Positions 239 to 12,777 of a DNA stretch of 12,777 bases are shown in pieces. Every line of letters starts with the position of its first letter. Position 1 is the stretch's first letter. The position numbers and the translations under genes are program-made. Source of the DNA: a virus (lineage: Duplodnaviria > Heunggongvirae > Uroviricota > Caudoviricetes); the IMG/VR virus record IMGVR_UViG_2579778842_000009; one strand, given 5' to 3'. The notes beneath the pieces are model-generated. The model searched no databases. It saw nothing but the letters and a program-made list of their open reading frames with translations, and was not told where the DNA came from.

Positions 239-292
239 CCTGTTTACCTCTTTCTCAGGGAGTTTAGTCTCCAGGATTTCCGGGGCGGTTCA
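1..292 (-). mobile_element. IS3-family insertion sequence (IS629/IS1203/IS3411-like), left end only; continues beyond window start
   Basis: Minus strand from 292 reads TGAACCGCCCCGGAAATCCTGGAGACTAAACTCCCTGAGAAAGAGGTAAACAGG then ATG of orfA. The TGA-initiated terminus and the orfA leader match my recollection of the IS629/IS1203 left end. The boundary at 292/293 is inferred from where IS30-like coding sequence begins. Confidence 0.65.
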
Positions 293-640
293 GTCTCAGT
301 AAATCAGGCTCTTACCGACAAATTCCTGAGTTTACCGTCAGAACTCAGAAAATCACTGACATGGGACAGAGGAATGGAACTGGCCAGACATCTAGAATTT
401 ACTGTCAGCACCGGCGTTAAAGTTTACTTCTGCGATCCTCAGAGTCCTTGGCAGCGGGGAACAAATGAGAACACAAATGGGCTAATTCGGCAGTACTTTC
501 CTAAAAAGACATGTCTTGCCCAATATACTCAACATGAACTAGATCTGGTTGCTGCTCAGCTAAACAACAGACCGAGAAAGACACTGAAGTTCAAAACACC
601 GAAAGAGATAATTGAAAGGGGTGTTGCATTGACAGATTGA
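293..640 (+). pseudogene. IS30 transposase, C-terminal fragment (N-terminus missing due to IS3-family insertion)
   Basis: Frame is open from 293 with no start context. Translation VSVNQALTDKFLSLPSELRKSLTWDRGMELARHLEFTVSTGVKVYFCDPQSPWQRGTNENTNGLIRQYFPKKTCLAQYTQHELDLVAAQLNNRPRKTLKFKTPKEIIERGVALTD matches the IS30 transposase C-terminus as I recall it. Stop TGA at 638-640 lies inside the inverted repeat. Confidence 0.8.
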
Positions 641-1322
641 ATCTACAGCGGCTTTCTTTAATGATTGTTCGGCGGATATGATCGCTCCAGGTATCCCGGC
701 GATTATTGCTGCCACGGGTGAGGTAATATTCCGCCAGTTGCTCGTCATACTGCGCCAGTGCGCCTTTATCCAGCGGTTGATAGCTGTTTTCATGCACCAA
801 AATGGAGGCCGGTAAACGCGGCTTAAGATCCGGATTATCCGCAGGCCAGCCAAGGCACAGCCCAAACAGCGGCAGAACATGCTGCGGTAATTTAAGCAGT
901 TTCGTCACCGCTTCAATATTATTGCGCAGGCCGCCGATATATACCCCGCCCAATCCCAGCGATTCCGCTGCGATTAATGCATTCTGCGCCATCATTGCCG
1001 TATCAACGACACCGAGCAACAGTTGTTCCGCCAGGCCGAGCTGAGCATCCGGACAGATCTGTAAATGGCGGTTAAAGTCGGCACAGAACACCCAGAACTC
1101 CGCCGCTTGCGCTACGTGTTTTTGCCCGCCGGTCAGCGTCACCAGTTCTTCACGTAACGCTTTGTCGGTAATGCGAATAATGCTACTGCACTGCAAAAAA
1201 CTGGAACTGGACGTCGCACGGGCGCTGTTAATAATCGCCTCACGCTGCGCTTCGGAAATGGGTTCATCAGTGAAATGGCGAATGGAGCGATGGCCACAAA
1301 TAAGTTCAATGGTTGGCGTCAT
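591..1322 (-). CDS. nfsA: Oxygen-insensitive NADPH nitroreductase NfsA, 3'-truncated by IS30: native sequence to about codon 225 (648-1322), then 18 IS-derived codons to a stop at 591
   Basis: Translation MTPTIELICGHRSIRHFTDEPISEAQREAIINSARATSSSSFLQC...TWSDHIRRTIIKESR is E. coli NfsA. After KESR the native C-terminus (PFILDYLHKQGWATR as I recall it) is replaced by CRFNLSMQHPFQLSLSVF, read from the IS30 inverted repeat. Confidence 0.85.
   Translation of the reverse strand: MTPTIELICGHRSIRHFTDEPISEAQREAIINSARATSSSSFLQCSSIIRITDKALREELVTLTGGQKHVAQAAEFWVFCADFNRHLQICPDAQLGLAEQLLLGVVDTAMMAQNALIAAESLGLGGVYIGGLRNNIEAVTKLLKLPQHVLPLFGLCLGWPADNPDLKPRLPASILVHENSYQPLDKGALAQYDEQLAEYYLTRGSNNRRDTWSDHIRRTIIKESRCRFNLSMQHPFQLSLSVF
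622..647. repeat. IS30 right terminal inverted repeat
   Basis: Sequence GTGTTGCATTGACAGATTGAATCTACA on the + strand; its reverse complement begins TGTAGATTCAATCTGTCAATGCAAC. nfsA coding sequence resumes immediately at 648. Confidence 0.6.
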
Positions 1323-1593
1323 TATCTTTTTCTCTTTCTGAACGTGAATATTGCGGTGGACGGTTCATCAGCTGTGGGGCAAGACGTTTTGCCACCTGAA
1401 GAATAACCACCACCGCAGCGGGAAGCATGAGCAAAACACCGAGAAAAATCATCAGAATCTGCACTTCTGGCCGAGAAAATGGCTCAGGCAGCGACAGGGA
1501 GTCGCTTACCGACAGCAGCGCCACCGCCAGTAGCATCATTCCGATAAATTCCAGTATCAACACGCCTTTAGGCAATTTACCGATCGCGCGCAT
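1306..1593 (-). CDS. ybjC: Small inner-membrane protein YbjC (DUF1418), first gene of the ybjC-nfsA operon
   Basis: 95-aa ORF MRAIGKLPKGVLILEFIGMMLLAVALLSVSDSLSLPEPFSRPEVQILMIFLGVLLMLPAAVVVILQVAKRLAPQLMNRPPQYSRSEREKDNDANH with two hydrophobic helices. Its stop overlaps the nfsA start, as in E. coli. Confidence 0.85.
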   Translation of the reverse strand: MRAIGKLPKGVLILEFIGMMLLAVALLSVSDSLSLPEPFSRPEVQILMIFLGVLLMLPAAVVVILQVAKRLAPQLMNRPPQYSRSEREKDNDANH

Positions 1594-1752
1594 ACGCTTC
1601 CCTCTGCAAAGTGAGCCTTCAGTCTAAAACTTTTCACTGTATTGTGTTTAACAGTTATAGCTTTTAGCAATTAATGCAACAGGTTAAACCTACTTTCAGC
1701 GAATACATTTTAGCGTGATCATTACAGGCATAAATCTATGAGGAGAGAAATA
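1594..1752. promoter_or_regulatory. Divergent promoter region for ybjC-nfsA (minus) and grxA (plus)
   Basis: 159-bp AT-rich spacer between divergent starts. grxA is a known OxyR-regulated gene in E. coli; I did not map a specific OxyR site or the -10/-35 elements. Confidence 0.4.
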
Positions 1753-2010
1753 ATGCAAACCGTTATTTTTGGTCGTCCGGGTTGCCCTTACTGTGTGCGT
1801 GCAAAAGATCTGGCTGAGAAATTGAGCAATGAACACGATGATTTTCAGTATCACTATGTAGATATTCGTGCGGAAGGGATCACTAAAGAAGATCTACAAC
1901 AAAAGGCAGGTAAACCCGTAGAAACCGTGCCGCAGATTTTTGTCGATCAGCAACATATCGGCGGCTATACCGATTTTGCTGCATGGGTGAAAGAAAATCT
2001 GGACGCCTGA
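1753..2010 (+). CDS. grxA: Glutaredoxin 1
   Basis: MQTVIFGRPGCPYCVRAKDLAEKLSNEHDDFQYHYVDIRAEGITKEDLQQKAGKPVETVPQIFVDQQHIGGYTDFAAWVKENLDA with CPYC active site. GAGGAGAG ribosome-binding site lies 5 nt upstream of ATG 1753; the longer ORF from 1738 (MRREI...) is probably not the true start. Confidence 0.9.
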   Translation: MQTVIFGRPGCPYCVRAKDLAEKLSNEHDDFQYHYVDIRAEGITKEDLQQKAGKPVETVPQIFVDQQHIGGYTDFAAWVKENLDA

Positions 2011-2019
2011 TCGTCTGAC

Positions 2020-2052
2020 AAGCCCTCGCGTTGAGGGCTTTACTGATTTTTT
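2020..2052 (+). terminator. Rho-independent terminator after grxA (hairpin shared with the convergent ybjM 3' end)
   Basis: Stem AAGCCCTC (2020-2027), loop GCGTT, stem GAGGGCTT (2033-2040), followed by TACTGATTTTTTCTG. The T-run is present only on the + strand. Confidence 0.6.
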
Positions 2053-2417
2053 CTGTGCTGTGGTTTAAACAAACTACTGATAAATAAGAAACACAGTGCC
2101 CCCAGCGCACACCAGAACACCGCACTTAATAACCATGCCAGCTCTTGCCAGAATGAGCGCGTCGGTGAAAAAAACAGCCGCATAATGAGCATCGAACAGG
2201 GTGCCGCCAGCATTGCGCCAAACAGAGGTTTCAGGACTTCTCTACGCTGTGAAAAGAAGCTGGCGACTGCTCCAGGAAGAATGAAAAATAGCAAGCCGAT
2301 TTCAGGATGCCCGGCAGCCCGAAAAGCGCCTTTCATGTGCGTCGCCAGAAAAAGGCACACCACAATGAAGAGGACAAAACAGCAGATTGCCCCCGCCCAA
2401 CGTTGTTTATGTTTCAC
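2040..2417 (-). CDS. ybjM: Inner-membrane protein YbjM
   Basis: 125-aa hydrophobic ORF MKHKQRWAGAICCFVLFIVVCLFLATHMKGAFRAAG... matching E. coli YbjM, in the conserved position between grxA and ybjL. Confidence 0.85.
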   Translation of the reverse strand: MKHKQRWAGAICCFVLFIVVCLFLATHMKGAFRAAGHPEIGLLFFILPGAVASFFSQRREVLKPLFGAMLAAPCSMLIMRLFFSPTRSFWQELAWLLSAVFWCALGALCFLFISSLFKPQHRKNQ

Positions 2418-2686
2418 TCGTTCCTCCTGACACTGCGTCTATCGAACACATTTTTCGCCAGTGTGGCGTTCAGTAAGATAAAGCCGCTTCGCATTCCATG
2501 CTAATATAGGCCAACGCAATTCATATAGCCGTTGATACCTAATGTGATTACACTAGTAAAATATATTGTTACTTTACTATCGTTTAGGTGCGCTGAATGA
2601 ATCTGCGCCCTGAATTCTGGTAAAAAACATTATCGTAAATTACCATTTCTTTCAACAGCTTACTAGTAAACAAGAAGTTAGCCTCC

Positions 2687-4372
2687 GTGAATATAAACGT
2701 CGCCGAATTGTTAAATGGGAATTACATTCTGTTATTATTTGTGGTCCTCGCGCTTGGGCTATGTCTCGGAAAGTTACGACTTGGTTCGATCCAACTGGGT
2801 AATTCCATTGGCGTTTTAGTCGTATCGCTGTTATTAGGCCAACAACATTTCAGCATTAACACCGATGCGCTTAATCTTGGCTTTATGCTGTTTATTTTCT
2901 GTGTTGGGGTTGAAGCCGGACCGAACTTTTTTTCCATTTTTTTTCGCGATGGGAAAAATTACCTAATGTTAGCACTGGTGATGGTTGGCAGTGCGCTGGT
3001 GATCGCCTTAGGGTTAGGTAAGCTGTTTGGCTGGGATATTGGCCTGACGGCCGGTATGTTAGCAGGCTCTATGACGTCGACACCGGTTCTGGTCGGTGCT
3101 GGCGATACACTGCGTCATTCCGGCATGGAAAGCAGGCAGCTCTCACTGGCACTGGATAATCTGAGCCTCGGGTATGCCTTAACCTATTTAATCGGTCTGG
3201 TGAGTTTGATTGTTGGTGCGCGTTACTTGCCGAAATTGCAGCATCAGGACTTACAGACCAGCGCCCAGCAAATCGCCCGCGAACGTGGCCTGGACACTGA
3301 TGCCAACCGTAAGGTTTATTTACCGGTGATCCGCGCCTATCGCGTCGGCCCGGAGCTGGTGGCCTGGACCGACGGCAAAAATCTGCGTGAACTGGGTATT
3401 TATCGACAAACCGGCTGCTACATTGAACGTATTCGACGTAACGGGATTCTGGCAAATCCAGACGGTGATGCCGTGCTACAAATGGGCGATGAAATAGCGT
3501 TGGTAGGCTATCCCGACGCCCATGCCCGACTCGATCCCAGCTTCCGTAACGGTAAAGAAGTTTTCGATCGTGACCTTCTCGACATGCGTATCGTCACTGA
3601 AGAAGTGGTCGTTAAAAACCATAACGCTGTAGGTAAACGTCTCGCACAACTGAAGTTGACCGATCACGGTTGCTTCCTTAACCGCGTCATTCGTAGCCAG
3701 ATTGAGATGCCGATAGATGACAACGTCGTGCTTAACAAAGGTGACGTTTTACAAGTCAGCGGTGATGCCCGTCGCGTAAAAACCATCGCCGATCGCATCG
3801 GCTTTATCTCGATTCACAGCCAGGTCACTGACCTGCTGGCATTTTGCGCCTTCTTTGTTATTGGGCTGATGATCGGGATGATCACCTTCCAGTTCAGCAC
3901 ATTCAGTTTCGGCATGGGGAACGCTGCCGGGTTGTTATTCGCCGGAATTATGCTGGGCTTTATGCGTGCTAACCACCCGACCTTCGGTTACATTCCGCAG
4001 GGTGCATTAAGCATGGTGAAAGAGTTCGGCTTGATGGTGTTTATGGCAGGCGTTGGTCTGAGCGCCGGTAGCGGTATTAATAACGGCCTGGGCGCGATTG
4101 GCGGTCAGATGTTGATTGCCGGATTGATTGTCAGTCTGGTGCCCGTGGTTATCTGTTTCTTGTTCGGTGCTTATGTATTGCGAATGAACCGCGCGCTGTT
4201 GTTCGGCGCAATGATGGGCGCACGTACCTGCGCGCCGGCAATGGAGATCATCAGTGATACAGCTCGCAGTAACATCCCGGCGCTGGGCTATGCGGGCACC
4301 TATGCAATCGCCAACGTCCTGCTGACGCTGGCAGGGACAATCATCGTCATGGTATGGCCAGGATTAGGATAA
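2687..4372 (+). CDS. ybjL: Putative transport protein YbjL (AAE-family transporter with two central TrkA-C/RCK-C-like domains)
   Basis: 561-aa ORF with GTG start ([29 protein letters not shown]...), hydrophobic N- and C-terminal halves and a soluble middle, matching E. coli YbjL. Confidence 0.9.
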
Positions 4373-4484
4373 AACTGAAGTTGCCCTGAAAATGAAATTT
4401 TTTTGCACAACCGCAGAACTTTTCCGCAGGGCATCAGTCTTAATTAGTGCCACTGCTTTTCTTTGATGTCCCCATTTTGTGGAG

Positions 4485-4530
4485 CCCATCAACCCCGCCA
4501 TTTCGGTTCAAGGTTGATGGGTTTTTTGTT
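4485..4530 (+). terminator. Candidate rho-independent terminator downstream of ybjL, on the host side of the prophage junction
   Basis: Perfect 10-bp stem CCCATCAACC (4485-4494) and GGTTGATGGG (4512-4521), followed by TTTTTTGTT. The 17-nt loop is long but can form an inner CCG/CGG pair. Confidence 0.5.
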
Positions 4531-4607
4531 GCCTGAAATTTAAGATGTTTAAAATCATGATGTTAGAAGCACTGTTTTTTAACGATGGCGACAAAATGGC
4601 GGCAGCG

Positions 4608-4826
4608 TCAAAGAGAGAGCGCCACCTGTCCTGATTTCATTGGATGCGGCTGAACTGGATTCGACTCTTTTGGTGTTGCAATCGAACGAACAAAAGTTTC
4701 ATGGGTAACAAAAGTATGGCTGCAGTTAATGTTCTGGCACTGGTTATAACGCTCTTTGGTCAATGAAGATACCTGAAAACTGCTGCGAGTATGGGCGGCA
4801 CTTCCACACAGTGGGCAAATCATCAT
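4608..4826 (-). CDS. ogr: Ogr/Delta-family zinc-finger late-gene transcriptional activator
   Basis: MMICPLCGSAAHTRSSFQVSSLTKERYNQCQNINCSHTFVTHETFVRSIATPKESNPVQPHPMKSGQVALSL has the CxxC...CxxxxC zinc finger and resembles P2 Ogr (72 aa). GGGGAGA ribosome-binding site lies about 9 nt upstream of ATG 4826. The longest ORF extends to 4859 (MNLAKMGRTRK...) but that extension is probably untranslated. Confidence 0.8.
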   Translation of the reverse strand: MMICPLCGSAAHTRSSFQVSSLTKERYNQCQNINCSHTFVTHETFVRSIATPKESNPVQPHPMKSGQVALSL

Positions 4827-4863
4827 TTTTCGAGTTCTCCCCATTTTTGCTAAATTCACAACA

Positions 4864-4890
4864 ATGATACCGTATTATTCCATTTTGCAA
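4864..4890 (-). promoter_or_regulatory. Candidate sigma70 promoter for ogr in the D-ogr spacer
   Basis: Minus strand reads TTGCAA, 15 nt, TATCAT within the 57-bp gap between the D stop and the ogr ORF. Spacing is suboptimal, so this is weak. Confidence 0.25.
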
Positions 4891-4916
4891 ACTTAAAAGT
4901 TCTCCATTGCGAAGAA

Positions 4917-6017
4917 TCATTCCATTTCGAAATCATCAATCCTCACTTCAAGCTCCAGACTGGTCGTAAAACCGTTATCCGGGCTGACGGTATGTGTCAG
5001 GGTGGTAATGGTCCATTCCGCATCATCTATCGGCTGTTTAAAACCACTGACCTTCACAGACATTTCCGTGTAGAGATCTGCCCGCCCTTCTGCCAGTTGT
5101 AGAGAAAATGACGCAACGCCGCGTTGCAGGCGTTCCCACTGCATTTTCGCCGCTCGTTCGGCGTTGCTCCGGTTGGCATAGGTGCGATTAAGTACCAGCA
5201 CGTTTTCATCCGTACCCACCAGGTAATCGCCCTGCTTCGCTTCTGGCTCTTTCTTCTGCTTCTTAGTTCTGCGCTTACGCTTCACCGTGGTGCTTTCTTT
5301 CTTCGCAGGTTCGCGGGTATGCAACCAGCTGGCAATTACGCCCGTGTAGGCTCCGCGATCTGCCAGGGTAAATCGGTGACTGTCGCCGTCCTTGCGTGTG
5401 ATAGTGATCACTGGCAGAGGTTTACCAGTGGCGCTTTTGCCCTGCCCCTGCCGGATGAATAACAGATTGCCATTTTTCACCGACGCGATGGCACCGTACT
5501 GTCTCGCCAGCCGCATCAGAAAACTGCCGTCACTCTCATTAGTCTGGTCTATATGCTCCACGGGCTTATCCGACAGGTCTTTACCCAGTGCCATCTTCAG
5601 CTTGTGCCGCGCGGCAATTTCCTGCACCACTTCCCCGACGGTGGTCTTATGCCACGATTTTTCACGGCGGGTATTCAGCGTTTCCCGAAAATCAGCACTT
5701 CGCGCCCGGATAGTCAGGCGGTCCGGTGCGCCAGTGTGTTCAATCTCGTCCACTGTGAATGCCCCTTTCGGGAAAAGCGGCTGCCCCTTCCAGCCCAGCG
5801 CCAGCGTAATGACCGCACCACGGCGCGGCAGCACGATTTTTCCGTCAGCGTCATCCAGCTCCAGATCAAGCTGGTCCGCTTCAAAGCCCCGGTTATCCGT
5901 CAGCGTCAAACTCATCAGGCGGTTATCCAGCACAGTGGTGATATCCCTGCCCTCAATACTGATGCTGAATGCGGGAGTTTTGTTGCCTTTGTTAAGCAGT
6001 TCAGAGCTGAAATTCAC
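4917..6017 (-). CDS. D: P2 gpD-like tail protein (phage late control gene D family)
   Basis: 366-aa ORF immediately upstream of ogr and overlapping the U stop by 4 bp (ATGA), in the position and about the size of P2 D (which I recall as about 387 aa). Confidence 0.8.
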   Translation of the reverse strand: MNFSSELLNKGNKTPAFSISIEGRDITTVLDNRLMSLTLTDNRGFEADQLDLELDDADGKIVLPRRGAVITLALGWKGQPLFPKGAFTVDEIEHTGAPDRLTIRARSADFRETLNTRREKSWHKTTVGEVVQEIAARHKLKMALGKDLSDKPVEHIDQTNESDGSFLMRLARQYGAIASVKNGNLLFIRQGQGKSATGKPLPVITITRKDGDSHRFTLADRGAYTGVIASWLHTREPAKKESTTVKRKRRTKKQKKEPEAKQGDYLVGTDENVLVLNRTYANRSNAERAAKMQWERLQRGVASFSLQLAEGRADLYTEMSVKVSGFKQPIDDAEWTITTLTHTVSPDNGFTTSLELEVRIDDFEME

Positions 6018-6499
6018 GACAGCAGCCCTCCCACCGTTTTACTGATATCGCTTAAGGCAGACGTTGCCGTGTCCTGCAGATTATTCAGTTGCGCACTGAG
6101 ATCACCGAACATATCGGACAGGGATTCATCCACTCGTTTGAGCGACAGGGTGAACTCAATCCGGCGCGGCATACCGTCGCGGAAAAACTCCGTTTTAGTC
6201 TGATTCAGTCCCTCAATCACATACATACCGTAAATCGTGCCGCTGCCTTCAATCAGGGGCCATGCTTTCCCCTGTTCTGCCATCTGCTCCAGTGCCAGCA
6301 ACGACAGCCTGCCGCCTGTTATCTCCGGCATAAGAACACCGGAAAGCGTCAGCATGTCGTTTTCCGGTCCCAGAAACTGCGTGGACGGACGTCGGTTTAC
6401 CCGACTGTTTGCCGCATGTCGCCAGCTGCGTTGATACTGCAGTTCCTGATACGGCACGGTGCGCAGCATAAACACGTACAATCCCAGCACCATCATCAT
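6014..6499 (-). CDS. U: P2 gpU-like tail protein
   Basis: 161-aa ORF between T and D with ATGA overlaps at both ends; size matches P2 U (which I recall as about 159 aa). Confidence 0.8.
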   Translation of the reverse strand: MMMVLGLYVFMLRTVPYQELQYQRSWRHAANSRVNRRPSTQFLGPENDMLTLSGVLMPEITGGRLSLLALEQMAEQGKAWPLIEGSGTIYGMYVIEGLNQTKTEFFRDGMPRRIEFTLSLKRVDESLSDMFGDLSAQLNNLQDTATSALSDISKTVGGLLS

Positions 6500-9400
6500 G
6501 CGTCGTATCCCCCCTGATCGCTGTAGTTACTCCTGGCTTTTGCCTTCAGCCTGCGTTCACGTTCATCAAGCTGGCGTGCCACCTCCCGAGCAATATCCTG
6601 CGCACTTTGTCCTGGCTGCGTCTGAATGATGATCTGCGTCGGTACCTCAATCCGTTGAACGAGCGGCACAGTGGCTGCGCGACTCACAATTGCTTCTCCA
6701 CCTTTCGCGGGGAGTGCCAAAGGGTGCAACGGTGGAAGCTCTGCTGGCGCGGCAGCAACGCCCATCATTCCGGCAACAACGGCAGCCAGTGCAGCTGTAT
6801 TTCTCCGGCTGGTCACATTTGCCGGGCCGTTAACAATTTCCGGCCCGTTTTCACCGACGATGCCAAACTGCCCGCGCGGGATATACCCGCCGCTGTCATA
6901 CATCCCCGCAAAGCCATACCCCCATGACGGAAAACCACCCGATGGCATCATCACTTTACCGTCTGCATTCACCGTCGCAGGTTGCTGACGCGTCACGCTT
7001 TCCGGCAGTTTTGCCTTTGCGGCCTCTTTACTGACAATGCCAAGTTTCTCCAGCAACCAGGAAACGCCGGATTTCAGGGAGTCCAGCGGATGCATGACCA
7101 TATTCAGCCCTTCCGCCAGTGCCTCTCCGAATCGCCGCCCCATTGCCGCTGCACTCTGCAGTTCGGCAGAGGTCGACTTAACGGGCGTCAGCAGATCAGT
7201 AAACCAGCCCCACAGCGCCTGTACTTTGTCGCCAATCCACTGGAACACGGGCTTAAGCGGTTCGAACGCTGCACTGACGGGACCTGCCGCCGCTTTGAAT
7301 CCTTCCACCACGCCACCAAGAAATGCGGTGATGGGTTGCCAGTATTTCCAGACAACCAGCGCCACGCCCGCCAGTGCAGTAACCACAAGACCTATCGGAC
7401 TGAGCAGAGCACCTAACAGACCAGATACGGCATACAGGGCAACGCGCAGCATCGCCAGTGGACCAGATGCCAGTACTCGCAGCACCGTGCCTGCGGCGAC
7501 CAGTCCACCGCGCAGTACCGACAGAGGATTCATAAACATCACAGCAACAGCACGTAAACCGGATAATCCAGACCGCAAAAGTGCAACCGGCGCACCTGCT
7601 ACAGTTTTCAGGGCATTTCCCGTCAGTGATGCCGTGCGGCGCAAAGACGACAACGGCGCAGTAAGTAAACCTGCTGCGTTGCCCGATGAAGCAAACCCGC
7701 GTCGCAGCAGTGCCAGTGGAGCGCCAGCCAGCCAGGACAACGCGCTGCGGGTTCGGGTTACTGCTGCCGTAACGGAAGGTAACGTTTTGATACCCAGCAC
7801 AGAGAATCCCAGACGGATCACTGCCAGCGGCCCCAGCACTGCAGCCAGCGCCACCGCTAAGGTTCCGAGGCCTACGGTAACCGCAGCCACCACAGCGGCT
7901 ACTTTCATCAGTGTGCCTGTCAGTTCCGGGTTAGCTTCCACCCAGCGGCGCAACGCCCCCGTGATGCTTTTCACCGTGTACAGAATATCCATCAGCGGCT
8001 GGCGCAGCGTTTCGCCCAGGCTGCTGAAGGTGTTCTGCGCTCCGGTTTTGACCAGCAACCACTGCGCAGAAAGTGAGTCCTTGTTAATGTCGGATTCTTT
8101 CTGCATGGAGCCGAGCGCATCATTGCCCGCTGTCAGTTTTAGCTGGCGCTGCAGTTCCGGCAGGTTGTTTGCCAGTTTCGCCGCGTCATCGCCAAACTCT
8201 TTACCAAACAACATGGTCATGGCAGACAGACGTTTATCCTGCGGCAGTGCGTTCACCTTCTCCAGTACGCGCTGGATAGTTCCCATCGCATCCTTCGTCA
8301 TCTGCTTTTCAATCACTTCAGGATTGAGTTTCAGCAGATTCATCCCTTCAAAGAAACTCTTGCTTTGCATGGTGGCAATGGACAATTCACGCACCATCGC
8401 GTTTGCTGCACTGGCTGCAACCTCCGGCGCAGCACCCAGAGTCAGGAAGGTGGAACCCAGTGCCGCCGCTTTACGATAATCCAGACGGTCAGCCACACCG
8501 CCCAGACGTTGCATCACATCGATGATGTCCGCCCCTTTCGACATGGCGTTATCATCCAGATAGTTCAGCGCATCGCCGAGCTGTTCAATATTGCGGGTAG
8601 GTATTTTGTAGAGCTGGGCGATTTTCCCCAGACTTTCTGACAGTTCATCCGCTGGCAGCTCAAAGGCTGTTGCCGCCTTTGCTGCCGTACTGGCGAAGGC
8701 CAGCAGGTCACGTTTCTGGTCTTCCCAGCTGTCGTCAGGGTTTGCGACGTTCATGCGCGCACCACCTTCAACCAGTGCAGCGAAGTCCACCGCACCGTTT
8801 TCCATCGGCAACTGTTCGCTGGCAGCCTTGATGGCATCCTGCATTTCATAAAAACGTGCAGTGCGGTTGCCATTATCGTCACGCAGACCATTGACCTGCT
8901 TTGCCACACCTTTCATGGCATCTTCCATGCTGGTATAGCTTTTTACTGCCGCCATCACTGGCGCACCCATTGCCAGCCCTGCAGCCGTGGTAGTGGCTCC
9001 GGCTCCTGCGATGCGATCGCGCACTTCAAGCCGTCTTGAGTATTGTTCTCTGGCAGCGTTCATCCGTGCCTGTTGTTCACCCAGACGTTTAAGTGCTTTT
9101 TGCTGGCCCTCCAGTGCCTGCCTTGTTTCTTCAGCATTTTTCTTAAGTTCTCGCTGGGCACTACTGAGTTGTCTGGTATCAATCCCTGATTCTTTAAGTG
9201 CCTGACGTTGTCTCTGGACCGCCCCCAACAAGCCGTTATAGGTCTGCTGAAGTTCCTGTACTCGTGTTTTGGCCTGACTGAATAACTTTGCCTGCGCGGC
9301 GGTTGGCCTGTTAGTGGCAGCAAATTGTGTGGCGAGTTTTGCCGCCTCTTCGCGGGCTGCGTTCAGGTTGTTGGCTGTTATGGCTAGTTGCGAGCGCGTC

Positions 9401-9573
9401 TTGCGAAATTCATCAATTCTGCCAGCCTGCTTATTCAGTTCTTTGAGGCTGTTTCGGGTATTCTGAATTGCGCCAGCCAGCTCTTTCGAACTGGCCTGTG
9501 CAGCACGGAATGGGCGGGTGAGTTTGTCAACCGCATTAAGAATGACCTGCAGGCGCAGGTTATTATCACTCAT
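6496..9573 (-). CDS. T: Tail tape measure protein (gpT-like), 1025 aa
   Basis: N-terminal coiled-coil-like Ala/Gln/Arg/Lys-rich region, a central run of Gly/Ala/Leu-rich hydrophobic segments, and a Gly-rich C-terminus; located between E/E' and U. Confidence 0.85.
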   Translation of the reverse strand: MSDNNLRLQVILNAVDKLTRPFRAAQASSKELAGAIQNTRNSLKELNKQAGRIDEFRKTRSQLAITANNLNAAREEAAKLATQFAATNRPTAAQAKLFSQAKTRVQELQQTYNGLLGAVQRQRQALKESGIDTRQLSSAQRELKKNAEETRQALEGQQKALKRLGEQQARMNAAREQYSRRLEVRDRIAGAGATTTAAGLAMGAPVMAAVKSYTSMEDAMKGVAKQVNGLRDDNGNRTARFYEMQDAIKAASEQLPMENGAVDFAALVEGGARMNVANPDDSWEDQKRDLLAFASTAAKAATAFELPADELSESLGKIAQLYKIPTRNIEQLGDALNYLDDNAMSKGADIIDVMQRLGGVADRLDYRKAAALGSTFLTLGAAPEVAASAANAMVRELSIATMQSKSFFEGMNLLKLNPEVIEKQMTKDAMGTIQRVLEKVNALPQDKRLSAMTMLFGKEFGDDAAKLANNLPELQRQLKLTAGNDALGSMQKESDINKDSLSAQWLLVKTGAQNTFSSLGETLRQPLMDILYTVKSITGALRRWVEANPELTGTLMKVAAVVAAVTVGLGTLAVALAAVLGPLAVIRLGFSVLGIKTLPSVTAAVTRTRSALSWLAGAPLALLRRGFASSGNAAGLLTAPLSSLRRTASLTGNALKTVAGAPVALLRSGLSGLRAVAVMFMNPLSVLRGGLVAAGTVLRVLASGPLAMLRVALYAVSGLLGALLSPIGLVVTALAGVALVVWKYWQPITAFLGGVVEGFKAAAGPVSAAFEPLKPVFQWIGDKVQALWGWFTDLLTPVKSTSAELQSAAAMGRRFGEALAEGLNMVMHPLDSLKSGVSWLLEKLGIVSKEAAKAKLPESVTRQQPATVNADGKVMMPSGGFPSWGYGFAGMYDSGGYIPRGQFGIVGENGPEIVNGPANVTSRRNTAALAAVVAGMMGVAAAPAELPPLHPLALPAKGGEAIVSRAATVPLVQRIEVPTQIIIQTQPGQSAQDIAREVARQLDERERRLKAKARSNYSDQGGYDA

Positions 9574-10002
9574 CGTTGGCCCCGCTTCTCTGAATCGCTT
9601 TATACCGCCATTCCAGCACTTCGGTCAGCGGCATAACGTCAGTAACGGATGGCGGCCAGTGAAAGATGGTGGCGATATCAGCCACCAGATCGTCAACCGT
9701 CAGGCTGTCGGTAAACCGGCAAGCACCGACTTCTTCAACAAAAAAGTGACAACCTCAACCGACATGGCAGTGAGATCTGCCGGGTCCATCTCTGCAATTT
9801 CCTGTGCAGTCAGTGCCGGACTGGAGATGCGGGGGATCACGGTCATCATCGCGTTCACATCCATATCCATAATGGCCTGCAGGCGTGTACCGCGCAGCGC
9901 ACCGGACTGCGGTTTACGCAGCACAATTTCGGTAATTTCTGTTTTACCGCGCTTGATAGGGGTATCCAGTTGAATGGTCTTTTCAGTCTGCTTATCACTC
10001 AT
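9566..10002 (-). CDS. E+E': Tail assembly chaperone E+E' fusion made by programmed -1 ribosomal frameshift
   Basis: Slippery heptamer T_TTT_TTG in the E zero frame (+ strand 9739-9745). The -1 frame stays open for about 59 codons (...FFVEEVGACRFTDSLTVDDLVADIATIFHWPPSVTDVMPLTEVLEWRYKAIQRSGANDE) and stops at TGA 9566-9568, overlapping the T start ATG by 8 nt. Confidence 0.65.
9700..10002 (-). CDS. E: Tail assembly chaperone gpE (zero-frame product)
   Basis: 100-aa ORF MSDKQTEKTIQLDTPIKRGK...VEVVTFLLKKSVLAGLPTA with an AGGA ribosome-binding site 8 nt upstream; sits between FII and T as in P2. Confidence 0.8.
   Translation of the reverse strand: MSDKQTEKTIQLDTPIKRGKTEITEIVLRKPQSGALRGTRLQAIMDMDVNAMMTVIPRISSPALTAQEIAEMDPADLTAMSVEVVTFLLKKSVLAGLPTA
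9739..9745 (-). other. -1 frameshift slippery site TTTTTTG for E/E'
   Basis: Minus strand reads GTC ACT TTT TTG TTG, an X_XXY_YYZ heptamer in the gpE frame located 13 codons before the E stop. Confidence 0.65.
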
Positions 10003-10027
10003 TTTGTTGTCCTGTAAATTGGGTTCT

Positions 10028-10045
10028 GGCGCGGAATCCCGCGCC
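10028..10045 (-). other. Intercistronic GC-rich stem-loop between FII stop and E start
   Basis: GGCGCGG, 4-nt loop, CCGCGCC: a perfect 7-bp stem beginning 11 nt after the FII stop. No T-run follows on the transcribed strand. Confidence 0.4.
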
Positions 10046-10056
10046 GTTCAGATACA

Positions 10057-10572
10057 TCAGAGGCCGAGGGCGTTGCGGTGCGCTTCCATCAGGTCCACAC
10101 CGTCCACAATTTCCACCATGTTGATAAGGTCCACTTCATAGAGCACCTCACCATTGATGGTCAGCTTCGCGTAGCTGTTGGTACTGGTCACTTTGGTGGT
10201 GTTGCTTTCGCCCGTCTTCCACTCACCGGAGTCCACTTCTTTGTGACGTCCACGCACCACAAGCTCCACGGCCTGCACTTCCCCGGTATCGTCACGCTGG
10301 ATAGAGCCGGTAAAGCGCAACTGGATGCCATCCACCGTGGCTTTGCCCATCTGCTTAAACAGCAGCAGTTCAGTGCCACCAATGGAAAATTCTGTGTCCA
10401 GCGCACTGTCATCAAGCCCCAGATCCACATCCACTGCCCCCGGCATTCCGCCGCCGCGATACTTCTCATATTTGCGGGTGAATTTCGGCAGCGTCAGCGA
10501 CTCAACGATCCCCTGCCAGTTGTTCCCGTCGTTAAACAGGTTCAGGTGTTTTAATTTGCGTGGTAAAGCCAT
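10057..10572 (-). CDS. FII: Tail tube protein (gpFII-like)
   Basis: 171-aa ORF MALPRKLKHLNLFNDGNNWQGIVESLTLPKFTRKYEKYRGGGMPGAVDVDLGLDD..., matching the size of P2 FII (which I recall as about 172 aa); lies 9 bp downstream of the FI stop. Confidence 0.9.
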   Translation of the reverse strand: MALPRKLKHLNLFNDGNNWQGIVESLTLPKFTRKYEKYRGGGMPGAVDVDLGLDDSALDTEFSIGGTELLLFKQMGKATVDGIQLRFTGSIQRDDTGEVQAVELVVRGRHKEVDSGEWKTGESNTTKVTSTNSYAKLTINGEVLYEVDLINMVEIVDGVDLMEAHRNALGL

Positions 10573-10581
10573 GTTGTCCCC

Positions 10582-11754
10582 TTACGCGCTGACCTGGCTG
10601 GCGAAATTCACCAGGTACTGATCGGTGATGCGCTGACGCAACATCAGGTTTTCAAGTGGCGGCACTGGCGTGTAGTCGTAGTCGATGGTGAGTTTTCCGG
10701 CTTTCAGAGTGTCTTTGTCGTTCACCGACTCGTCCAGCCAGCAATCACCACCAATGAGATACCCCTGACTGACCAGGCTGCGCATTTTGGCGCGGATGCC
10801 CTCGATAATGTCGCGCGCCAGCGACGGGTTCAGCGGTTTGTCCACTGCCCACATGTGCGCTTCTGCCATTGTGTCCGTCAGCACCTGCGCCGTGCGGGTG
10901 TAGTTTTCGAAGGCAAAGAGCGGGTCATCACTCAGGCAGCGGGAACCCCAGAAGCGGAAACCGTCTTTACGCACAAGCGTGGTGACGTCGTTCTGGTTCA
11001 GCAGACCTGCATCGGTTGCCGGGTCCTGCAGATCCCAGAACACATCTGCAGAAATTCCGGTGACACCGTTCACGCCCACGTTGGACAGGCTTTTGTGCCA
11101 CCCAGTCTGCTCATCAATTTTGGCACGCAGACCAAGCGCACGGGCGGTGGCATATGCCGTTGCTTCGGCATTCAGCACCGTGTCCCAGCCAGTAAAGTCG
11201 GGCCAGATCAGCATTCCTTCGCGCTGGCTGAAGTTTTCACGGTAAGTGATCGCCTCCTGCACCGTCTTGCAGCCATACGCTGACAGGTAAGCAAACCCAC
11301 GCAGGCTTTGCGCCACACTCAGCAACTCAGTAGCAACGGCTTTGTTATCGTGACCTGGCACGCCGAGAATGCGCGGTTTAACGCCGAGCTGTGTCTGGGC
11401 AGATAACAGGGCTTTCATGCCTGTTTTTTTACCTTCAGCAGTCACTGCGCCGATGATATTGGTCGTGGTTTCTTCTTCCGTTTCACCCTGCGGCACACGC
11501 ACAACAACGGTCACGGGTTTTGCCTGGTCAGCGATGGCATCCAGCGAACGGGCCAGCGTGCCGGACTCACCCGCTTTACCGCTGGCAGTCAGCACATCAG
11601 TGATCAGCACGGGTTTATTAAGAGGAAACATTTTTGCATCGGCATCATCGCCCGTGCAGACCATACCCACGATGGCGGTGCTCACCGTGGTAATGGATCG
11701 GGTGCCTTCGTTGACTTCAACAACGCGCACCCCGTGGTGGTAATCCTGAGCCAT
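10582..11754 (-). CDS. FI: Contractile tail sheath protein (gpFI-like)
   Basis: 390-aa [57 protein letters not shown]...[24 protein letters not shown], closely resembling P2 FI. AGGAGG ribosome-binding site 9 nt upstream of the ATG. Confidence 0.9.
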
Positions 11755-11830
11755 AGTGGCGAACCTCCTGATTGGATTAGGCTTCGCCCTATGTTGAAGT
11801 GATTGTGCCTGACAAACAGCTAAGCGCAGT

Positions 11831-11848
11831 TGTACCGTTATTCATACA
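11831..11848 (-). promoter_or_regulatory. P2-type late promoter (PF-like) activator site: TGT-N12-ACA dyad for Ogr
   Basis: TGTACCGTTATTCATACA (TGT, 12 nt, ACA) centred about 85 bp upstream of the FI ATG. This fits an Ogr site at about -55 with a roughly 30-nt leader. Confidence 0.55.
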
Positions 11849-11896
11849 AAATGACGGTATTTGTCTGCTTGCAGGGATAATCAACATAATGCTGAT

Positions 11897-12463
11897 TCAG
11901 GGGGATTCATTGCTCTTATTTGCCGGAAATTTTCTATAAATTGTGGAAACACCCACATCAAAAATCAGTGCAATACGCTGTCTTGATTCTCCGGCCTCGA
12001 GTAAACGTCCAATCTGTGCCCACTGTTCGGTGGTCAACTTAGGACGGCGTCCACCTACTCTGCCTTTAGCACGAGCTGCAGCCAGCCCCGCCCTGGTACG
12101 TTCAACTATCAGTTCGCGTTCCATTTCAGCCAGGGCCCCCATGACATGAAAAAAGAAACGGCCCATTGGGGTGCTGGTATCAATACTGTCAGTCAGGCTT
12201 CGGAAATTCACGCCACACTGGCGCAACTCTTCTATCAGCGTAACAAGATGCCGCATACTGCGCCCCAACCTGTCCAGCTTCCAGACAACCAGCGTGTCTC
12301 CTGCCGATAGTGTCCTGAGCAGTTTTTTCAGCCCCGGTCTGTCGGACTTAGTGCCACTGATTTTATCCTCAAAAATCCGCTCACATCCCGCGCAGTTCAG
12401 CGCACTACGTTGCAAATCGGTGTTCTGGTCATTTGTTGACACGCGTACATAGCCAATAAGCAT
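11897..12463 (-). CDS. pin: Serine recombinase, DNA invertase of the Gin/Pin/Hin/Cin family
   Basis: MLIGYVRVSTNDQNTDLQRSALNCAGCERIFEDKISGTKSDRPGLKKLLRTLSAGDTLVVWKLDRLGRSMRHLVTLIEELRQCGVNFRSLTDSIDTSTPMGRFFFHVMGALAEMERE... is near-identical in motif content to Gin/Pin, with the catalytic Ser in YVRVST. AAGGAG ribosome-binding site is 6 nt upstream of ATG 12463; the ORF-track start at 12469 directly abuts the RBS and is unlikely. Confidence 0.85.
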   Translation of the reverse strand: MLIGYVRVSTNDQNTDLQRSALNCAGCERIFEDKISGTKSDRPGLKKLLRTLSAGDTLVVWKLDRLGRSMRHLVTLIEELRQCGVNFRSLTDSIDTSTPMGRFFFHVMGALAEMERELIVERTRAGLAAARAKGRVGGRRPKLTTEQWAQIGRLLEAGESRQRIALIFDVGVSTIYRKFPANKSNESP

Positions 12464-12518
12464 GATCATCTCCTTGAATAAAAATCGGGGATGATGCCAG
12501 TTAGTCGTAATCGCTGCA

Positions 12519-12544
12519 TTTTCTTAAACGTTGGTTTGGGAGAA
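12519..12544. other. gix/hix/pix-like 26-bp invertase crossover site (invertase-proximal boundary of an invertible segment)
   Basis: TTTTCTTAAACG TT GGTTTGGGAGAA compared with gixL TTCCTGTAAACC GA GGTTTTGGATAA and hixL TTCTTGAAAACC AA GGTTTTTGATAA (both from memory). The AAAC, 4 nt, GTTT core is conserved and the right half matches gix at 10 of 12 positions. It lies about 70 bp upstream of the invertase start, as gix does relative to gin. Confidence 0.6.
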
Positions 12545-12777
12545 GCGGCAAAACGGGATGTAGGGACAGGGGAAAATCAGATACCGGACATGGCCTCTTT
12601 TGCCAGTGGTGATGGATGGATGAAATTACCCAACGGGAAAATCCTGCAATATGGTCGTGGTGCGGTTACGCCGACATTATCGACGCAAACAATGAGAATT
12701 ACATTCAGCATCCCTTTTCCTAAAAAAGTGGACTGCGCCATGCTTACTCATTCTGGTGATGGTGGTGCGCCTTTAGG
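12531..12777 (+). CDS. Partial ORF: putative alternate (silent-orientation) tail-fibre C-terminal variable cassette, reading from the crossover site into the invertible segment; continues beyond window
   Basis: Frame open from 12479 to the window end: ...GLGEAAKRDVGTGENQIPDMASFASGDGWMKLPNGKILQYGRGAVTPTLSTQTMRITFSIPFPKKVDCAMLTHSGDGGAPL. The KLPNGxIxQxG ... FPxxFP motifs resemble C-terminal receptor-binding regions of Mu S/e14 Stf-type tail fibres. Internal ATGs at 12491, 12494 and 12590 exist, but the frame runs through the crossover site. Confidence 0.4.

Follow-up and report, generated by a model that had tools for sequence, protein, structure and literature searches.

The ybjL-ogr spacer of a P2/186-like prophage: the rybB gene and a very probable attR junction at its 3' end

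Genes and features between ybjL and ogr

The spacer studied here covers positions 4373-4607 (235 bp) of the window, that is, of the whole 12,777-nucleotide stretch of DNA that was analysed. To its left lies the host gene ybjL (2687-4372, plus strand), a member of the aspartate:alanine antiporter family recognised from the list of open reading frames (ORFs), the RefSeq annotation of matching DNA and the Pfam domains Asp-Al_Ex and TrkA_C; its stop codon TAA is at 4370-4372 in both the ORF list and the RefSeq annotation of identical DNA. To its right lies the last gene of the prophage, the late-gene activator ogr (4608-4826, minus strand; stop codon at 4608-4610), identified by annotation and by Pfam PF04606 (Ogr_Delta, E=5e-22). 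The ORF list and the annotation agree with the limits given in the first-pass annotation (ybjL ending at 4372, ogr stopping at 4608, a spacer of 235 bp). It had also remarked that rcdA is absent from the window; this gene indeed lies outside it, across the prophage and immediately past the integrase end. At the host-side end of the window, an IS30-family element (1-647) has replaced the 3' end of nfsA, and the DNA can be aligned with intact nfsA loci from 648 onwards. In the porcine enterotoxigenic Escherichia coli (ETEC) strain UMNK88, the annotation lists nfsA as a pseudogene ('missing C-terminus') next to an IS30 transposase. Strains can become resistant to nitrofurans by losing nfsA, which may be relevant for a porcine ETEC lineage.

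The spacer, at first treated as non-coding, proved to contain a gene. An Rfam search detected RybB (RF00110) on the plus strand: the match, at 4452-4530, scores 105.3 bits (gathering score 40; E=2.5e-21) and covers the full model (positions 1-79 of 79). The 79-nt small-RNA gene rybB (GCCACUGC...GGGUUUUUU) is intact, 100% identical to that of K-12 and placed at 4449-4527 on the plus strand, G4449 (GCCACUGC...) being what we take to be the 5' end of RybB. Upstream of it, at 4415-4442 on the same strand, the sequence reads AGAACTT (-35) and TCTTA (-10) with a 16-nt spacer, and 6 nt separate TCTTA from the G at 4449; in our own reading, this arrangement fits the sigma-E promoter type. The rybB gene has been located in the ybjK-ybjL spacer, and its transcription was reported to depend strictly on sigma-E and to stop at a rho-independent terminator (Papenfort et al., 2006; PMC1804206); the position of rybB directly after ybjL in the window agrees with this known location.

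The intrinsic terminator of RybB extends over 4483-4530 (plus strand) and consists of a stem and a T tail, as seen from both the fold and the Rfam structure line. RNA folding gave a 12-bp stem in which 4483-4494 are paired with 4512-4523, followed by UUUUGUU (-25.2 kcal/mol, z = -3.3; none of 200 shuffles folded as well). A simple terminator scan did not flag this hairpin, the loop of which is longer than 8 nt and above the limit of the scan, and the terminator was established by folding and Rfam in its place. It is the same hairpin that had earlier been called terminator-like and probably host-derived: the first part of that description stands, whereas the second is only partly correct, as the 3' half and the T tail belong to the attachment core (see below), which is common to phage and host. 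We also considered the hairpin as a bidirectional terminator that would serve ogr, and rejected this: no T tract follows it on the minus strand, and the RNA of the phage arm between core and ogr folds no better than shuffles (z = +1.6). Finally, a scan of the window found no tRNA or tmRNA gene, which rules out a tRNA as the integration target.

Attachment core and position of strand exchange

Positions 4373-4530 are 100% identical to the ybjL-rcdA spacer of K-12, identity then falls to 8/12 in 4531-4542, and only noise is found beyond. A 401-nt probe placed across the spacer found a match in 5419 of the 5426 complete E. coli genomes searched. In the listed genomes in which it does not continue into ogr, the match stops at 4530 or 4542 and rcdA follows directly, so that the uninterrupted host match through 4607 that the first-pass annotation had named as a check was not seen. 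In 1105 of the 5426 genomes, ogr lies beside rybB; the site is occupied in about 20% of complete E. coli genomes and empty in 78%.

The other end of the prophage could be examined in UMNK88, to which the window is 100% identical over 289-12777. From attR, its prophage contains tail, head and replication genes, a 186-type CI/CII/Fil module and the integrase gene, and it ends with ...cccgtttacataaATGGGTTTTTTGTTATCTAAAACTTAtctactaccc, directly before rcdA. The 338-aa product encoded beside attL contains Pfam PF24624 (Int_N) and PF00589 (Phage_integrase) and is a tyrosine integrase. A 14-nt sequence, ATGGGTTTTTTGTT, located at 4517-4530 in the window and composed of the last 7 nt of the 3' stem of the RybB terminator plus the T tail, recurs beside the integrase gene both in UMNK88 and in a record labelled DH5alpha (NZ_CP026085.1). 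Comparison of repeats and junctions identified it as the exact core common to attR, attL, attB and attP. The earlier expectation that both the prophage-host junction and the core lie within the spacer is therefore borne out, with the junction at 4517-4530(-4542), and both the repeat and the integrase gene that were to be sought at the opposite end are present there. It should be noted that NZ_CP026085.1 matched the 401-nt probe at 100% and the window as a whole at only ~98%, with gaps. This 4.83-Mb 'DH5alpha' record holds the prophage with a GmrSD gene, a KAP NTPase gene and an IS3 in the tail-fibre region; a K-12 record has an empty site, and the label looks doubtful.

The 14-nt core is followed by an imperfect extension, GCCTGAAATTTA (4531-4542), which is of phage type in the window, is identical to attB in about one third of the empty E. 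coli sites and shares 8/12 positions with the K-12-type allele. The prophage of CFT073 has a perfect repeat (26/26) at both ends; in the UMNK88-type prophage, only 14 nt are exact and the next 12 nt match at 8/12. About 20 other imperfect repeat families were listed within 37 kb, and 14-nt repeats arise by chance at that length. Thus, the case rests on the comparison of attB, attP, attL and attR and not on the repeat alone. If the repeat were coincidental, the island could have entered by homologous recombination or transposition, for which the chance range of a 14-nt exact repeat is the point in favor; however, identical breakpoints recur in over 1000 E. coli genomes as well as in Klebsiella, attB can be rebuilt exactly and a phage record contains the matching attP, and we regard a coincidence as having practically no probability.

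The rebuilt attB, obtained by joining the left part of attR to the right part of attL (201 nt), is 100% identical to empty sites such as that of strain E2865 and is uninterrupted in 4227 of the 5426 genomes. Hence, nothing was deleted by integration. The first-pass annotation had left open whether the prophage sits at the intergenic region or replaces it; it sits there, with rcdA displaced, and does not replace it. The free attP was found in Klebsiella phage KP12, in which the integrase gene, P arm, core, P' arm and ogr are contiguous on one molecule, and the same arrangement was observed in one IMG/VR locus (L084). For the UMNK88-type prophage, attP is predicted to read ...cccgtttacataaATGGGTTTTTTGTTGCCTGAAATTTAagatg....

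Empty sites carry two kinds of attB allele after the T tail (read at L004 3218-3243 and L002 4218-4243). The first, GCCTGAAATTTA, makes the site identical to the phage over 26 nt and is found in MS7163, O157:H7 strains and altogether roughly 1300-1500 genomes, an imprecise count of empty sites for this GCCTG-containing allele, since the 80% coverage cut lets some lysogens through as well. The second, ATCTAAAA(C/T)TTA, which also occurs as ATCTAAAAYTTA, is carried by K-12, G1/2 and E2865. It is conceivable, although we attach very little weight to this, that the phage-identical 26-nt allele is the footprint of an earlier lysogeny instead of an ancestral polymorphism.

These alleles were informative for mapping the crossover. 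In the UMNK88-type prophage, the bases that follow 4530 are those of the phage at attR but those of the host at attL, which places the exchange at or to the left of 4530; this right bound comes from the K-12-type allele at attL and from one additional IMG/VR locus (L138). On the left, lysogens with GGTTGGT instead of GGTTGAT in rybB place the exchange to the right of 4517, so that the left bound is 4518. The comparison of hosts with variants in rybB or downstream of it moved this bound by 1 nt only, and two loci that diverge right after the T6 run (L132 and L137) were left out of the mapping because, with no rcdA downstream, they could not be recognised as host junctions. Judged from these junctions, strand exchange must have taken place inside the core (4517-4530), most likely within 4518-4530. 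The putative overlap region is contained in TGGGTTTTTTGTT (4518-4530), which is made up of the last bases of the 3' terminator stem and the T tail; the cleavage positions would lie somewhere in this stretch, which the sequence delimits as a region and not as exact cuts.

A crossover further to the right, in AAATTTA (4536-4542), would mean that the host carried GCCTG and the phage ATCTA, and that 4531-4535 are host DNA. About one third of the empty E. coli sites do carry GCCTGAAATTTA, and AAATTTA is common to attR and attL in the record labelled DH5alpha. Nevertheless, we consider such a position very unlikely, since all attP or phage-side copies examined (KP12, 4LV2017, CFT073 and the IMG/VR set) have G(C/T)CTG, the attL of UMNK88 has ATCTAAAACTTA and does not share AAATTTA, and the attL flank (tctactaccctgcaac) goes with the ATCTA allele in K-12 and G1/2. 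Moreover, attL in Klebsiella consists of the core, GCCTG and cgtttag, which puts the exchange to the left of AAATTTA. We suggest setting the prophage boundary at 4517-4542.

Phage arms and proposed integration mechanism

The remainder of the spacer (4543-4607) shows no homology to empty sites, and the same sequence follows the core in the attP of KP12; it represents the phage P' arm of attR. Two kinds of element were recognised in it. The first is an IHF-like site, AATCATGATGTTA (4553-4565, plus strand), with one mismatch to WATCAANNNNTTR. In relatives with otherwise unrelated P' arms, AATCAANNNNTTR is found without any mismatch and equally far from the core. IHF may bind at 4553-4565. The second is a putative pair of direct arm-type integrase repeats, P'1 and P'2 (4586-4604, plus strand), which read TGGCGACA-aaa-TGGCGGCA and form the 19-mer TGGCGACAAAATGGCGGCA. 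This 19-mer is present in exactly 2 copies in 47 kb, one per att arm and in the same orientation, where 0.01 would be expected, and it matches, as the reverse complement, the consensus tgccGCCActt described for 186-type arm sites (Nilsson et al., 2011; PMC3448106). The repeats of the P' arm end 3 nt before the ogr stop codon and are probably bound by the integrase.

Further support for the arm elements came from relatives collected in IMG/VR scans; an exact-pattern P' arm scan of species-representative genomes gave a single locus only. In relatives with P' arms that cannot be aligned, the IHF-like site and the arm repeats stand at a fixed spacing from the core. On the P side, homology among IMG/VR relatives resumes exactly at the arm repeat, even after unrelated cargo. 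The slot for such cargo, between the integrase gene and the P-arm sites, is occupied in UMNK88 by a 110-aa ORF without a Pfam match (L008 7859-8191), in CFT073 by a different 89-aa ORF (L009 2505-2774) and in other IMG/VR relatives by unrelated sequences. The P-arm repeat of UMNK88 survives behind its cargo ORF as non-coding DNA. This persistence as non-coding DNA and in spite of cargo argues for selection on a DNA site and not on a protein.

Several IMG/VR loci (L044, L015, L050, L051, L041, L021, L077 and L175) were found to combine the same core, IHF-like site and arm repeats with P' arms that are unrelated to the ogr end. A third TGGCGACA is present in some of the elements with such arms, and a long tandem repeat of the CACCAA type occurs in some of them. 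Judging by these shared sites, other mobile elements seem to use the same rybB attachment system.

Taken together, these findings very probably identify the spacer 4373-4607 as attR (B-O-P'), formed when the integrase of a P2/186-like (Peduoviridae) prophage joined attP with attB in the 3' end of rybB. On this model, the tyrosine integrase would recombine the phage attP with the host attB at the rybB 3' end. The phage has a small hairpin of its own downstream of the integrase gene (aacccgtttacataaatgggtt plus T6), the 3' half of which is the core; as a terminator at attP, this hairpin is weakly supported by folding (z = -1.6). Recombination would exchange the 5' halves of the two hairpins, leaving the whole RybB terminator at attR and the phage hairpin at attL. 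Because the phage core is the 3' half of its own hairpin, integration rebuilds a complete rybB at attR and keeps a hairpin at attL; no host base is lost, and rybB is rebuilt exactly, as tRNA 3' ends are after integration. Everything to the left of the core is host DNA (rybB with its sigma-E promoter and, before it, the 3' flank of ybjL), and everything to the right of 4542 is the P' arm, with an IHF-like bend site followed by the 186-type pair of arm repeats. Both integration and excision at the rybB site are probably catalysed by the phage integrase. We suggest that 4373-4607 should be annotated as rybB plus attR, which is better than 'intergenic', and that rybB, to judge from its sequence, should be recorded as intact in lysogens.

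Alternatively, the element could be a fixed, defective remnant, with the junction as a fossil and no working att site. In UMNK88, the last 14 residues of the integrase have been replaced through the cargo ORF that lies between the integrase gene and the P arm. However, over 336 residues the protein shares 98% identity with the full-length version, and its C-terminal catalytic-domain region is kept; both att sites, both pairs of arm repeats and the core are intact, and a full P2-like gene set is annotated. We therefore regard a defective remnant as unlikely, and even if this copy were defective, the origin of the junction would be unchanged. The prophage copy of the window is, in our reading of these sites, probably still able to excise.

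Lysogeny sets rybB, with its strongly inducible sigma-E promoter, in convergent orientation to ogr, and no more than 80 nt separate the 3' ends of the two genes. Transcripts running past the RybB terminator would be antisense to ogr, by which envelope stress could modulate late-gene expression, but this is a speculation to which we attach very little weight. Two additional observations were made elsewhere in the prophage. First, a 190-aa gene of the 'recombinase family' (11897-12469, minus strand), annotated as a DNA invertase in phage Cartapus, is located between the tail sheath gene and oppositely oriented fragments of tail-fibre and assembly genes (L008 34315-35189), which suggests an invertible tail-fibre segment for host range near this gene. 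Second, megablast did not align 9032-9460, a stretch within the tape-measure gene, to the prophage of NZ_CP026085.1, although identity to that prophage is otherwise 97-98%; this is a sign of mosaic exchange within the gene.

Relation to known attachment sites

The rybB integration site of P2-like prophages is already known and has been in the literature since 2011, and the junction described here is a textbook attR at a known hotspot that raises no new biological question. Its value is mainly for annotation, as exact att coordinates help to delimit islands at this site, which is among the common hotspots for P2-like integration in E. coli. In addition, the conservation map of the ~200-bp attP (arm repeats, IHF-like site, hairpin and core, IHF-like site, arm repeats) could guide the use of the rybB-site integrase as a tool.

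Previously, the P2-like prophages Rybb*W, Rybb*B and Rybb*Cr of E. coli W, B and Crooks were reported to be inserted at the 'rybB ncRNA' (Archer et al., 2011; PMC3032704), and PhiECO1, PhiECO2, PhiECO3 and PhiSEN1 were grouped under one integration site (Nilsson et al., 2011; PMC3448106). At its published coordinates in CFT073, PhiECO3 was located at the rybB site and has the same core. Hotspot #29, flanked by ybjL and rcdA, was described as containing only Felsduovirus-type prophages, within rybB, with defence cargo that varies and lies in other parts of the prophage (Hochhauser et al., 2023; PMC10121019). The window shares with Rybb*W/B/Cr, PhiECO1/2/3 and hotspot #29 the site between ybjL-rybB and rcdA, the phage type and the orientation that places ogr next to rybB. 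It differs from the E. coli rybB prophages only in details of cargo and allele, being of the UMNK88 type with a 14-nt instead of a 26-nt repeat and a 110-aa cargo ORF.

In Klebsiella, the island Kpn38RybB was placed 'precisely within the gene for RybB' (Hudson et al., 2014; PMC4048246). Compared with the present prophage, the integrases of Kpn38RybB, 4LV2017 and KP12 are 92-93% identical at the DNA level and their P' arms 96-97%, and they have the same core inside rybB; for phage 4LV2017, attL and attR of 19-20 nt are annotated at the same sequence. These elements differ in the host genus and in the host side of attL, which diverges after GCCTG and leaves a 19-nt repeat.

Coliphage 186 resembles the present prophage in its lysogeny module (CI, CII and Fil annotations), in arm repeats that fit tgccGCCActt and in integrating at the 3' end of a gene for a structured RNA, with restoration of that gene. 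Unlike 186, the attB of which lies in a tRNA-Ile gene, the rybB prophage targets the terminator of a small RNA and has a much shorter core. In our comparison with a phage collection, its integrase was only ~55% identical to the nearest 186-like and ~38% to P2-type integrases, which fits a different core specificity. Other att sites in small RNA or tmRNA genes include ssrA (Fels-2 and SopEPhi), ryeB/SdsR in Salmonella and ryeE/cyaR for P2-type phages (PMC3603311; PMC3448106; PMC3032704). The rybB site is similar to all of these in that the phage core and a conserved ncRNA gene overlap at the 3' end of the gene, whereas the RNA gene and the specificity of the integrase are different.
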